A DNA stretch of 64,000 bases from an uncultured bacterium (lineage in GTDB: Bacteria > Patescibacteriota > Minisyncoccia > Phycocordibacterales > UBA9973), in NCBI GenBank assembly GCA_903892035.1, contig CAITGV010000002.1, positions 1,714 through 65,713 of the forward strand. Reading direction: 5' to 3'. A model generated the notes under the pieces. It did not search any database and was not told the DNA's origin. It saw nothing but the letters and a program-made list of their open reading frames with translations. Below are positions 1-51,288 of the stretch, piece after piece (within the stretch, counting starts at the first letter, position 1; every line of letters begins with the position of its first letter). A program made the translations under genes and the position numbers.

Positions 1-118
1 CCAAAATTATTCTAGAGTCTCCAATGCTCACTTCAAGCGCATTCAAAACTGCAGGAACTGCTCCCTCAAATTCGACATCGATAACCGGCCCTATGATTGT
101 TTTTATTTTTCCTTGCAT
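1..118 (-). CDS. atpD: F0F1 ATP synthase beta subunit, N-terminal fragment; gene runs off the window start
   Basis: Reverse complement of 1-118 starts at ATG (116-118) and reads MQGKIKTIIGPVIDVEFEGAVPAVLNALEVSIGDSRII, a typical AtpD N-terminus. It completes the atp operon downstream of atpG. Absent from the ORF track because it is truncated. Confidence 0.75.
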   Translation of the reverse strand, partial: MQGKIKTIIGPVIDVEFEGAVPAVLNALEVSIGDSRIIL

Positions 119-1094: not shown

Positions 1095-2051
1095 CTAGCT
1101 CACGCTTGCCATACCTGCTGATATTTCCGATATTTCTTGGGTGATTGATGACTGGCGGGCTTTGTTGAATACCAGTGTCAGGTCGTCGATCATCTCCCCT
1201 GCGGCCTCGGATGCATTCTTCATGGCGACCATGCGCGAGGAATGTTCGGAAGCGGTGGACTCGAGAAGCATTTGATAAAACTGCATTCGAGCTAGCTTCT
1301 CTACCAACACACTCATCAATATCTCATAATTTGGCTCAAAAGTATACTGCACCGACTTGGTAGTCGGAGTACCAATTGGTACTCCGACTACCAAGTCTTC
1401 AACCTTCATTTTATTTTTTTCTTCCCCTATCGTTTGTATAAATGAAGCTACTTCTGCACCACTTACTGGAAGAATTGGTCGTACTGTTGCGACTTGAGAA
1501 AGTGCAGAAACGAAATCGGTATATGCTATTGAAACACTACTATAATTTCCCTTTTTGAAAAGTTCCATTGCGTGATTTACGATTGGTAGAGCTTCTGTAA
1601 ATCCTGCAGTATCGCTGATATCGTTGAAAGATGCGACAATGTTTTGTCCAAGACGACGAAGAGCAACTTCACCTTTCTTGCCGACGGAAATGAAATCAAT
1701 TCCACTTTCCCCTAGGCCTTGCCTGTGGGAATTTTCTTTGATTATTGCAAAGACTTTTTTAATGACTTGGGAATTGTAAGCGCCACAAAGTCCACGGTTT
1801 GAAGTGACGAGAATTATCAAAGATTTTTCTGCATTATTATTTACTTTCAAAAGTGGATGATTACTTTCTTGTGCTTGTTGTGATAAAGAAGAAAGAACTT
1901 CCCATGAATATCTTGCGTACTCCCTTGAAGCAAGCGTCCTCGAAATAGCGCGCTTCATCTTCGAAGCTGCCACCAGCTCCATCGCCTTGGTGATCTTCTT
2001 CGTGCTCTTCACGCTCTTTATTCGTCTTTTTATTTCTTTCGTGGATGCCAT
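1095..2051 (-). CDS. atpG: F0F1 ATP synthase gamma subunit
   Basis: N-terminus MASTKEIKRRIKSVKSTKKITKAMELVAASKMKRA and C-terminus ARQSSITQEISEI match the gamma subunit. Position between atpA and atpD. TAG stop at 1095-1097. Confidence 0.95.
   Translation of the reverse strand: MASTKEIKRRIKSVKSTKKITKAMELVAASKMKRAISRTLASREYARYSWEVLSSLSQQAQESNHPLLKVNNNAEKSLIILVTSNRGLCGAYNSQVIKKVFAIIKENSHRQGLGESGIDFISVGKKGEVALRRLGQNIVASFNDISDTAGFTEALPIVNHAMELFKKGNYSSVSIAYTDFVSALSQVATVRPILPVSGAEVASFIQTIGEEKNKMKVEDLVVGVPIGTPTTKSVQYTFEPNYEILMSVLVEKLARMQFYQMLLESTASEHSSRMVAMKNASEAAGEMIDDLTLVFNKARQSSITQEISEISAGMASVS
1355..1396. repeat. Perfect 42-bp palindrome ACTTGGTAGTCGGAGTACCAATTGGTACTCCGACTACCAAGT (head-to-head dimer of the REP unit), in frame inside atpG
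   Basis: Read directly. Each half equals the 23-bp hairpin unit found at 19343, 19555 and 19831. Encodes LVVGVPIGTPTTKS within AtpG just before the conserved YTFEP segment. Confidence 0.85.
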
Positions 2052-3566: not shown

Positions 3567-3971
3567 TTATCCTATTAATGCTTGGCGTAATGATTCTAAT
3601 TTTGCTTTAACCGACCCATCGTATACCTCATCCCCTATTTTAATTTTAAATCCCGCTATTAATCTTTGGTCTAAAAATTCGAGGATATGAGCTTCTTTAA
3701 CTTTGTATCTTTGCTTTAGAGATTCTCTCAAGTGACTTTTTGTATTTTCATTCATCCGATCTTGACTCCATACTTGTGCCTCCACGATGCTATGTTTTTT
3801 GTCGTAAAGTTTACGATAATTTTCCATTATTTGTGGAATTTGTCGCAACATTTTTTTACTTTTTAAATAAAGAGCAAATTCTTTTACAGTTTTTTTTAAC
3901 ATAGCTTCATCGAGCTTGTCTGTGCTATCAAGTAGTATTTCTGCTAAATGTTTTGAGCTAACTCTTTGCAT
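3567..3971 (-). CDS. atpH: F0F1 ATP synthase delta (OSCP) subunit, short form
   Basis: Position between atpF and atpA. 134-aa alpha-helical protein with OSCP-like C-terminus. Shorter than typical. Confidence 0.6.
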
Positions 3972-19342: not shown

Positions 19343-19365
19343 ACTTGGTACTCCGACTACCAAGT
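19343..19365. repeat. REP unit ACTTGGTACTCCGACTACCAAGT (8-bp stem, 7-nt loop), 19 bp upstream of the RAYT start
   Basis: Read directly. Same unit as 19555, 19831 and the halves of 1355-1396, here with loop CTCCGAC (inverted relative to the intragenic copies). Confidence 0.85.
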
Positions 19366-19384
19366 GATATACTTAACTTAATCT

Positions 19385-20017
19385 ATGAGAAATCACAAAT
19401 TTACTGAAGGTGAATACTATCATATATATAATCGTGGCACGGAAAAAAGAGATATCATTTTAGATCAGTATGATCTCCATAGATTTATGAAAAGTTTAAT
19501 AGAATTCAATAGAATTGAGCCTATAGGTAGTTTGTATGAATTATCATTCCAAGAACTTGGTAGTCGGAGTACTAAGTTAAAGAAAAACAAACTAGTTTCA
19601 ATTATTGCGTATTGTATAAATACAAATCACTTCCATTTAATTCTTACTCCACTAGTAGAAAAAGGTATCGAAAAGTTTATGCAAAGAATGGCTGGATATA
19701 CTAGATATTTTAATGAAAAAAATAAGCGAACAGGTGTATTATTTCAAGGTAAATTTAAATCTAAGCATGTTGGATACAATAATTATCTAAATCATTTGAG
19801 TGCATATGTGAATATGAATAATTTAGATAAACTTGGTAGTCGGAGTACCAAGTTGAGCAGGTCTAGTTTAGAGGAGTATATTGATGTGAACTTTGGCGGT
19901 GGTATTTGTGATACATCTATCGTACTTGATCAATTTAAGAGTAAAAAGGACTATTTAAAATTTGCAAAAGAGTCTTGGGCGGATACTCTGGAGAGGAAAA
20001 AGTATCTGGAAATTTAG
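19385..20017 (+). CDS. REP-associated tyrosine transposase (RAYT, IS200/IS605-like Y1 HUH transposase) carrying two in-frame REP insertions
   Basis: Conserved YHIYNRGTEKRDI, HUH motif HFHLIL, FQGKFKS and a Tyr in AYVNMN match the RAYT/TnpA_REP family. Two copies of the REP unit lie inside the ORF, each translated as LGSRSTKL. Confidence 0.75.
   Translation: MRNHKFTEGEYYHIYNRGTEKRDIILDQYDLHRFMKSLIEFNRIEPIGSLYELSFQELGSRSTKLKKNKLVSIIAYCINTNHFHLILTPLVEKGIEKFMQRMAGYTRYFNEKNKRTGVLFQGKFKSKHVGYNNYLNHLSAYVNMNNLDKLGSRSTKLSRSSLEEYIDVNFGGGICDTSIVLDQFKSKKDYLKFAKESWADTLERKKYLEI
19555..19577. repeat. REP unit ACTTGGTAGTCGGAGTACTAAGT (one mismatch) inside the RAYT ORF
   Basis: Read directly. In frame; encodes ELGSRSTKL between the N-terminal motif and the HUH motif. 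Confidence 0.8.
19831..19853. repeat. REP unit ACTTGGTAGTCGGAGTACCAAGT inside the RAYT ORF
   Basis: Read directly. In frame; encodes KLGSRSTKL just after the catalytic-Tyr region. Confidence 0.85.
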
Positions 20018-26201: not shown

Positions 26202-26286
26202 AATAATAATTATTTGATTGTTTTAAAGAATATAGACTATCCATATCCAAAGAAACTTTAACATTTTTATTGATATATGTCAATTG

Positions 26287-26316
26287 AAAAAACGCCATAA
26301 TATATGGCGTTTTTTC
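26287..26316. terminator. Hairpin AAAACGCCATA-atat-ATGGCGTTTT plus T-run
   Basis: Read directly. Downstream of the 26328 gene on the minus strand. Confidence 0.5.
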
Positions 26317-26327
26317 AAGATTTTGTA

Positions 26328-44191: not shown

Positions 44192-44253
44192 AAAGTAAAT
44201 ATATTATATCAATTATGAAATGAATAACGAAATATTTTAAACTGGGGAAAACA

Positions 44254-44285
44254 AAAAAACTTTTATATTTCTATAAAAGTTTTTT
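44254..44285. terminator. AT-rich 14-bp-stem hairpin AAAAAACTTTTATA-tttc-TATAAAAGTTTTTT between the two giant genes
   Basis: Read directly. Perfect palindromic arms with T-run after the hairpin on the minus strand. Confidence 0.4.
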
Positions 44286-44307
44286 TGTTTATTCAAATTA
44301 TATAATT

Positions 44308-51218: not shown

Positions 51219-51245
51219 TTTATGCAATATTTTCTGTGGATAACA

Positions 51246-51288
51246 AATAGCGTGGCGGGGTACTCCCCGCCACGCTATTTGTTTTTTT
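51246..51288 (+). terminator. Strong GC-rich hairpin AAATAGCGTGGCGGGG-tact-CCCCGCCACGCTATTT followed by TTTTTTT on the plus strand only
   Basis: Read directly. 16-bp perfect stem. The U-tract is on the plus strand although both flanking genes are minus-strand. Confidence 0.55.

Follow-up and report, generated by a model that had tools for sequence, protein, structure and literature searches.

A REP-like hairpin dimer in frame in atpG of a patescibacterium and its probable link to an IS200/RAYT-type Y1 transposase gene

Introduction

Repetitive extragenic palindromic (REP) sequences of the GTAG and CGTC types also occur within open reading frames (ORFs), for example in Opitutus terrae, Rickettsia conorii, Thauera, and Xanthomonas. 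Dimers make up the majority of these intragenic copies (more than half), and DNA ligase and tRNA synthetases are among the hosts (Di Nocera et al. 2013, PMC3733652). A GTAG REP is defined as harboring the GTAG tetranucleotide at one end, outside of the base pairing (PMC3733652). The REP-associated tyrosine transposases (RAYTs) occur as a single copy in each genome and are vertically inherited (Bertels et al., PMC5581495). The Rickettsia palindromic elements (RPEs) reside in frame in unrelated genes and have a conserved peptide that is seemingly compatible with protein function (PMC10969869). The subject of the present analysis is a perfect palindrome located in frame within atpG, the gene for the gamma subunit of the F1 ATP synthase, on a 64,000-nucleotide stretch of contig CAITGV010000002.1 (hereafter, the window) from an uncultured member of the Patescibacteria, together with a Y1 tyrosine transposase gene on the same stretch that carries the same repeat.

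The palindrome is very probably a copy of a hairpin family resembling REPs and their inverted doublets (REPINs), which is linked to a Y1 gene of the IS200/RAYT type, is spread across Patescibacteria, and is tolerated and translated in its host genes. The unit found in atpG is identical to the repeat at the Y1 locus, and the family is tied to the architecture of the Y1 gene. Intragenic copies are subject to a length-and-frame filter, recur in housekeeping genes, and are absent from the nearest AtpG orthologues.

The Palindrome and Its Hairpin Unit

The 42-bp dimer at window positions 1355–1396 is composed of two hairpin units joined head to head, ACTTGGTAGTCGGAGTACCAA followed directly by TTGGTACTCCGACTACCAAGT (A–B arrangement). 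An earlier note on this DNA had called it a perfect palindrome, and the sequence is exactly that; in a repeat search it grows by one base on either side to a perfect palindrome of 44 bp (Table 1). The basic unit is a 23-bp hairpin, ACTTGGTAGTCGGAGTACCAAGT, in which an 8-bp stem (ACTTGGTA/TACCAAGT) encloses the loop GTCGGAG. Given the symmetry of the stem, the orientation of a unit shows in its loop only, which is GTCGGAG in A and CTCCGAC in B. The GTAG of the unit (TTG-GTAG-TCGG) sits within the stem of the monomer and is paired with CTAC in the dimer.

The 21-mer half of the palindrome occurs at five places in the window, at 1355 (+), 1376 (−), 19345 (−), 19555 (+, one mismatch), and 19831 (+), the last three of which belong to the Y1 locus 18 kb away, as the earlier note had also recognized. 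No match to the 21-mer appeared in 100 dinucleotide-preserving shuffles of the window, and a search of the 64-kb window for degenerate copies at up to 2–3 mismatches found none beyond these five units. When folded as single-stranded nucleic acid, the dimer forms a perfect stem of 20 bp, with energies of −23.7 kcal/mol (DNA) and −40.4 kcal/mol (RNA) and a z-score of about −10.

A REP is a short (20–40 bp) repeated stem-loop, and the present element, with its 23-bp unit, 8-bp stem, and five units in 64 kb, agrees with this description. REPs typically number from tens to thousands per genome; the five units here come from 64 kb of the source genome. In a REPIN, two inverted REPs fold together into a long hairpin and are copied jointly; correspondingly, the 42-bp doublet is found at 23 distinct sites, and single contigs can hold several (three on L042 and two on L020). 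A scan of the window against Rfam at gathering thresholds returned only a tRNA, leaving the palindrome without an Rfam family. A role as an intra-operon terminator was considered and rejected, since no T-run follows the palindrome and it was not called in the terminator scan.

Distribution across Genomes and Host Genes

The distribution of the repeat was surveyed by scanning one genome per GTDB species for the exact 19-mer TTGGTAGTCGGAGTACCAA and the Joint Genome Institute (JGI) metagenomes for the A–B junction of the dimer. The 19-mer is present in 52 stretches of the GTDB set, from metagenome-assembled genomes (MAGs) labelled Parcubacteria, Nomurabacteria, Saccharibacteria, and “Patescibacteria group”, as well as from three contigs of one Prevotella-labelled MAG; 12 of the matching stretches come from the MAG JBBUED01. 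The dimer junction was found in 23 stretches of the JGI metagenomes. Viral contigs gave 0 exact matches to the 19-mer, and a phage vector is thus not supported.

After the removal of duplicates, a copy was counted as being inside a long ORF when the ORF had at least 150 codons and the element was at least 15 codons from each of its ends. By this measure, 19 of the 23 distinct sites of the 42-bp A–B dimer are inside long ORFs, all of them read as (N/D)LVVGVPxGTPTTK(S/F/L/Y/W), whereas the 47-bp B–A dimer, in which the units are separated by a 4–5 bp spacer, is never found in this setting (0 of nine distinct sites; Fisher p = 2.5e-5). Monomers occur at 55 distinct sites, 20 of them inside long ORFs, where they mostly read LGTPTTK. 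The predominantly extragenic location that is characteristic of REPs is therefore not seen in this family, given the intragenic shares of the 42-bp dimers (19/23) and the monomers (20/55); only the 47-bp dimers lie outside genes throughout. Two phases of the palindrome are open, but every one of at least 14 independent sites uses the same phase (p about 1e-4), the sole copy in the other phase being inside an ORF of 56 codons.

The host proteins identified by Pfam comprise PheT, LigA (at two sites), Fmt, HolB, aminopeptidase N (PepN), IF-2, an RsmI-type methylase, a TypA-like GTPase, ValS, and LeuS, and a LepA-like GTPase also appears to be a host on the basis of an NLIDTPG context recognized by eye. 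The same 42-bp DNA is present in at least 12 unrelated protein families, and its occurrence in unrelated genes of many other genomes identifies it as a repeat element rather than an ancestral loop of AtpG. LigA illustrates how the occupancy of a site varies among genomes. Site 1 is occupied in L014 and L071, and L031 and L025 have an empty site; at site 2, L014 has no copy, L025 a monomer, L009 a remnant together with a monomer, and L031 the full dimer. These mixed states indicate that copies are gained, lost, and remodelled in place. A search with a concatemer of LVVGVPxGTPTTK variants against an index of 5.8 billion proteins gave one candidate, and none was scored.

Of note, some patescibacterial tRNA synthetases harbor whole inserted domains that are separate from the hairpin inserts, i.e., a His_Phos_1 domain in ValS (L065) and a NUDIX domain in LeuS (L022/L032). 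In the Prevotella-labelled MAG (Prevotella sp. SUG3189, GC content 45–47%), the exact 19-mer lies at L013 331–349, L036 7904–7922, and L041 500–518, within arrays of hairpins that resemble TTGGTAC-N5-GTACCAA and have conserved flanks (GTACCGATGC...GCATTGGTAC). These arrays could represent a related repeat family outside Patescibacteria or contamination.

The Dimer in AtpG

On the minus strand, the palindrome is read in frame as D219-LVVGVPIGTPTTK-S233, within a single 318-aa ORF that remains open across it. S233 lies three residues ahead of the invariant Y236, which belongs to the Y-x-F-E-P sequence at the start of the C-terminal helix. The earlier note had described an open, in-frame palindrome just before the YTFEP helix region of a somewhat long AtpG, and each of these points is confirmed, including the length, which is mostly 292–312 aa among the 120 best homologues. 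The 14-residue insert peptide is presumably translated. The predicted tryptic peptide covering it is VEDLVVGVPIGTPTTK, and peptides of the insert type include those containing LVVGVPSGTPTTK as well as the LGTPTTK junction peptides.

In an AlphaFold2 model of AtpG, built on an alignment of 74 sequences (mean predicted local distance difference test score, pLDDT, of 81.5), the only stretch with a pLDDT below 50 is 219–230, which corresponds to the insert and is predicted as coil between helices 198–218 and 242–316. A β-hairpin conformation of the insert peptide was considered and is not claimed, as AlphaFold2 gives no confident structure there. When AtpG is compared by phmmer to the gamma chains of the PDB, the alignment breaks at query residues 202/235 such that residues 3–202 match residues 3–197 of 2qe7_G and residues 235–314 match its residues 203–282. 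AtpG of the window thus has 32 residues where 2qe7_G has about five, placing the insert within a naturally variable linker.

The nearest distinct relatives of this AtpG (P0002–P0005; 90% identity, 304 aa, from GROS21 metagenomes) do not have the dimer. The 14-aa difference in length resolves into two separate indels of +6 and +8 aa. The former is GLGESG, encoded at 1701–1718 (−); its 18-mer is unique in the window and hence does not represent a second repeat insertion. The latter (net 24 bp) lies at the palindrome site and is accompanied by the replacement of about 18 bp of the ancestral loop, such that the relatives read ...AAATCTCCACAGGTCGGACCTGTGAGAAGTGTGCAG... and the window reads ...GTTGAAGACTTGG...CCAAGTCGGTGCAG.... 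The view that the 14 residues are an insertion, proposed in the earlier note, therefore holds in that the nearest orthologues are without the dimer but has to be modified in that the site shows a net gain of eight codons with local replacement rather than 14 clean ones. A distant group of AtpG proteins (P0069 type, 62% identity) carries LVVGVPSGTPTTKS in the same loop, six codons farther from the conserved tyrosine, and its DNA is the same 42-mer, identical at 41 of 42 bases. Orthologues with the same 14 residues and no REP, which would have spoken against a mobile element, were not encountered, given that the P0069 type carries the REP DNA itself.

In the sister atpG genes without the dimer (L001–L003, about 3640–3660), an unrelated 17-bp perfect palindrome, CACAGGTC-G-GACCTGTG, is present at the same site. 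It has GTCGGA in common with the loop of the unit, which may be due to chance or to another hairpin family.

The Y1 Transposase Locus

The Y1 ORF of the window lies between gap and gatB and passes the cutoff of the Pfam Y1_Tnp model. Its alignment reveals the motifs HFH and Y-x-N-M-N-N (AYVNMNN), i.e., the HUH motif and the catalytic tyrosine expected of a RAYT. The protein has 1,740 homologues, several of which are named “REP element-mobilizing transposase RayT” by JGI. A phmmer search of the PDB with the Y1 protein gave only a chance match (E = 0.83), so that no solved RAYT or TnpA structure could be used to locate the two units inside the ORF.

Hairpin units are found both around and within the Y1 genes. 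In L047, L052, and L058, a unit is present on either side of the gene, one about 17 bp ahead of the ATG and the other about 7 bp past the stop codon, so that unit, Y1 gene, and unit form a compact element of about 690 bp in L047; the upstream unit has an equivalent position in the sister genome L083. Flanking by cognate REPs, a characteristic of RAYTs, is thereby observed on both sides in L047, L052, L058, and L083 and, in the window, as one upstream and two internal units. The Y1 genes of L047, L052, and L058 have two internal units at the same positions, in a single orientation and read as LGTPTTK, and most of the 120 best Y1 homologues show L-[GS]-x-x-[TS]-T-K at both internal positions, with a few having unrelated sequence there. 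Relative to L047 (5904/6174), the 7-nt loops of both internal units of the window are inverted from CTCCGAC to GTCGGAG, amounting to three C-to-G changes each. This flip converts LGTPTTK into LGSRSTK, a peptide that among the 120 best homologues occurs only in the protein of the window, and it is the pattern that would be expected from stem-mediated inversion.

The sister Y1 (P0125, L083 4007–4708), from the genome whose AtpG is 90% identical, shows 67% identity to that of the window and is located between recR and rplU. It has a hairpin variant of its own, ACTTGGAAGC-AAG-GCTTCCAAGT, read as LGSKASK, at all four places, while the outer stem ACTTGG/CCAAGT is common to the two hairpins. The hairpin variants that can be set against the Y1 clades include TAGTCGGAGTA, AAGCAAGGCTT, and others. 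The different locus and the separate hairpin of the sister copy imply that the gene moves and has a cognate hairpin, which brings it nearer to insertion sequences (IS) than to the vertically inherited RAYTs. Nor is the gene limited to a single copy, as P0184 and P0225 both originate from one Nomurabacteria genome.

Table 1. Positions of the palindrome, the hairpin units, and the genes that carry them in the window
Feature	Position	Strand	Details
Perfect palindrome	1354..1397	.	Arms 1354–1375 and 1376–1397, 100% complementary, no spacer
atpG, F1 ATP synthase gamma	1095..2051	−	318 aa; PF00231 E = 2e-87; TIGR01146 288 bits vs cutoff 194
Hairpin unit upstream of Y1	19343..19365	−	19 bp upstream of Y1 start; loop opposite to the two internal units
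Y1 (HUH) tyrosine transposase, IS200/RAYT type	19385..20017	+	210 aa; PF01797 E = 5.5e-8, 33.4 bits vs cutoff 23
Hairpin unit inside Y1 ORF	19555..19577	+	One mismatch; translated ELGSRSTKL
Second hairpin unit inside Y1 ORF	19831..19853	+	Just past the catalytic tyrosine motif; translated KLGSRSTKL

Other Features of the Window

Three other perfect inverted repeats are present at 44249–44290, 51242–51283, and 26284–26318, with arms of 16–19 nt and loops of 3–4 nt. Their sequences are unrelated to the hairpin unit, and they are probably terminators. Between atpG (−) and the N-terminal part of atpD (117..1, −) lies an ORF of 204 aa on the opposite strand (374–988, +), which has a hydrophobic N-terminus and matches no Pfam family. 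In the sister genome L001, the gap between atpG and atpD is merely 36 bp.

Nucleotide-Level Upkeep of the Palindrome

Sites that are filled in several genomes allow the element to be compared to its surroundings. In the orthologous sets available (P0069-type atpG in four genomes, pheT in three, and ligA site 1 in two), the 42 bp are 95–100% identical as opposed to 58–84% for the 150-bp coding flanks, and the element exhibits almost no synonymous change. The earlier note had anticipated cruciform formation or replication trouble from so long a palindrome, an expectation that is at odds with the persistence of dimers at orthologous sites in several diverged genomes.

Where copies have diverged, both arms are altered together, as in L009 (GGAGCACC...GGTGCTCC), L077 (two pairs), and L032. 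Among 15 distinct variants, 96.7% of the cells pair, and five of the 20 stem pairs are changed on both sides compared to 1.1 ± 0.9 in shuffles, only one of 500 of which reaches five; slid registers yield 0–1 double-sided stem changes. This covariation test draws on a small sample (the 15 variants) and takes its structure from the consensus, and the result is supportive of, but not conclusive for, a hairpin constraint or a process in which one arm serves as the template for the other. The palindrome is presumably kept intact through selection on the hairpin, gene conversion, or template switching.

Proposed Origin and Alternative Explanations

It is hypothesized that the Y1 enzyme acts on the units by recognizing their hairpin in single-stranded DNA and then moving or copying them, in analogy to the TnpA proteins of IS608 and ISDra2 and the E. 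coli TnpA-REP, which serve as models for the action of Y1 enzymes on single-stranded hairpins. Two 23-bp units would fuse head to head to generate the 42-bp near-perfect palindrome. In compact genomes, copies would often land in genes, and those that survive would be the ones with a length that is a multiple of three, no stop codon, a benign peptide, and a tolerant loop as their point of entry. In AtpG, the dimer would have entered the variable linker before the C-terminal helix, where the ribosome would read through and add the loop noted above. As part of this explanation as a whole, which is considered highly probable, the entry into the atpG linker would have taken place in this genome after its split from the sister lineage.

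Several observations weigh against this explanation. No transposition event was directly observed, and the dimer sites yielded no target-site consensus or duplication beyond ACTTGG...CCAAGT. Relative to the nearest orthologues, the atpG site is a gain with local replacement and not a clean 42-bp insertion. The Y1 ORF scores 22.8 bits against NCBIfam NF047646 (REP_Tyr_transpos), for which the cutoff is 80; hence, the earlier assignment of a RAYT to this locus is upheld by Pfam and falls short on the NCBIfam model as well as on the IS-like relocation in the sister genome. No unit was found downstream of the Y1 ORF of the window, and this copy may not be mobile. In addition, Y1 proteins with the same hairpin are only about 67% identical to one another, no closer than to the sister Y1 with its different hairpin, such that the co-evolution of enzyme and hairpin is not clean.

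The role of the Y1 enzyme is the part of the proposal for which other routes can be envisioned. The hairpin might spread and stay uniform without it, via gene conversion or hairpin-templated strand switching, the Y1 gene being just one more colonised host. Such a route would account for the units that lie in frame in the Y1 ORF as they do in other genes, for the in situ changes at LigA site 2 (monomer to remnant to dimer), for the flipped loops in the Y1 of the window as a signature of stem-mediated inversion, for arms that change together, and for the lack of a target-site signature. It is nevertheless judged improbable, because the fixed distances of the units from the Y1 start and stop in several genomes and the variant that the sister Y1 carries at its four places fit cognate enzyme–site pairs, and because strand switching can remodel a copy but cannot alone seed new loci in unrelated genes. 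Alternatively, the hairpin could be a functional DNA or RNA motif under selection, i.e., a protein-binding site or an mRNA structure, rather than merely tolerated. The scarcity of synonymous change at orthologous sites, the compensatory changes and G-T pairs, the exact 19-mer shared across classes, and the 20-bp RNA stem at −40 kcal/mol all point in this direction, and yet the low copy number (five units in 64 kb), the patchy presence even between sister genomes, the lack of terminator-like features and of an Rfam match, and the functionally unrelated host genes render this alternative unlikely as well.

The remaining explanations concern the atpG copy itself. Errors of multiple displacement amplification or of assembly, such as a fold-back chimera, can yield perfect palindromes, but an artefact of this kind can be set aside almost entirely in view of the correct in-frame AtpG sequence on both sides, the identical AtpG protein on five contigs in NCBI and ENA, and the recurrence of these 42 bp, in frame in every case, in dozens of contigs with record names that point to different projects and assemblers. 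An origin of the 14 residues as a loop motif of AtpG, whether ancestral or selected convergently, and not as mobile DNA is hardly credible, either. While a distant AtpG clade does have nearly the same peptide in the same loop, that clade carries the same nucleotides (41/42) at a shifted position although the proteins are only 62% identical, which rules out an ancestral loop in favor of a discrete DNA element, and the same DNA in at least 12 unrelated families and its absence from the nearest orthologues lead to the same conclusion. Lastly, the element could be skipped rather than translated, through a programmed translational bypass or removal at the RNA level, since its very stable mRNA hairpin resembles the bypass elements known from T4 gene 60 and yeast mitochondria. 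The chances of this appear very slim: on inspection of the sequence, a ribosome taking off at GAC would have a single GAC downstream to land on, from where the shifted frame runs into a TGA, and skipping would tolerate any length or phase, yet genes contain only copies in the stop-free phase with a length of 3n and none of the 47-bp form.

Beyond the proposed Y1-linked origin, a more far-reaching possibility, which is regarded as doubtful, is that the repeats constitute a coding REP system across the phylum rather than tolerated junk, in which the hairpin has a DNA or RNA function or in which a self-correcting palindrome drive operates in coding sequence. The Y1 ORF would then hold two translated copies of its own predicted recognition hairpin, and the 42-bp derivative would have been kept at orthologous positions in presumably essential genes (atpG, pheT, ligA, and infB) over long divergence, with compensatory stem substitutions and hardly any synonymous change. 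Candidate functions that this would imply are binding by Y1 or at the replication fork and the control of mRNA structure or processing.

Implications

Small hairpin repeats of the REP/RAYT type are present in Patescibacteria, also referred to as the candidate phyla radiation (CPR), a group for which none has been reported in the searchable literature; in the literature search, no paper joined RAYTs or REPINs with CPR taxa, and none contained the peptide or DNA strings. With intergenic DNA being scarce, these repeats persist largely in essential genes, presumably as translated loops of seven or 14 residues, and they offer a natural data set on which protein loops tolerate insertions. The wider pattern across genomes is of more interest than the single copy in atpG. 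The repeats explain the odd conserved peptides LVVGVPxGTPTTK and LGTPTTK in CPR proteomes, by which alignments, phylogenies, and domain calls could be led astray. They also permit a comparison of enzyme, hairpin, and host genes over many genomes, and the nucleotide conservation and compensatory changes within coding sequence raise the question of whether the palindromes are selected or self-correcting.

Comparison with Known Systems

The closest described systems are the GTAG REPs and REPINs with their RAYTs (PMC3733652; Bertels & Rainey 2011, PMC3116915). In both these and the patescibacterial family, short GTAG hairpin repeats frequently form inverted dimers that fold into a longer hairpin, the Y1 gene is flanked by the repeats, and some copies, mostly dimers, reside in ORFs and add residues to the protein. 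However, there are several differences. In GTAG REPs the tetranucleotide is an unpaired end tag, whereas it is inside the stem in the unit of the window; described REPINs have a spacer, which the 42-bp dimer lacks; and the patescibacterial sequence is the same across classes of a phylum that is absent from the published list of phyla with REPs (PMC3733652). The 42-bp dimer is, moreover, mostly intragenic and always in one frame, and the patescibacterial Y1 ORF has, throughout the family, two translated units of its own. In contrast to the RAYTs (PMC5581495), the Y1 gene changes its locus between sister genomes.

This last property is shared with the IS200/IS605 elements (e.g., IS608 and ISDra2), which are likewise compact, have a Y1 HUH transposase and hairpins at both ends, and vary in locus between related genomes. 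In IS200/IS605 elements, a Y1 tnpA between left- and right-end hairpins is mobile together with them as a whole; the corresponding arrangement is seen in L047, L052, and L058. The patescibacterial Y1 differs from these in its two extra hairpins within the ORF and in the free-standing copies of the hairpin in the genome, and the window's Y1 has no right-end hairpin; single-strand cut-and-paste is assumed here from the family.

The RPEs are similar in being palindromic repeats found in frame in housekeeping genes of a reduced genome (PMC10969869). They are about 100–150 bp long, have a CGTC tag and no dedicated transposase (PMC3733652), and are restricted to Rickettsia, in contrast to the patescibacterial element, which is 21–42 bp long, of the GTAG type, and linked to Y1. 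The element is accordingly not a member of the RPEs, which may serve as an analogue only, through their in-frame insertion. The palindromic amphipathic repeat coding elements (PARCELs) are also horizontally spread coding DNA with dyad symmetry, but they form tandem arrays of a 25-residue motif in surface proteins, are of unknown function, and have no reported link to Y1, whereas the patescibacterial hairpins are single small inserts in housekeeping enzymes. Thus, there are precedents in the intragenic REPs and the RPEs, and what is new is the presence of REP/RAYT-type repeats in Patescibacteria, the single frame of their intragenic dimers, and the translated units within the Y1 ORF.

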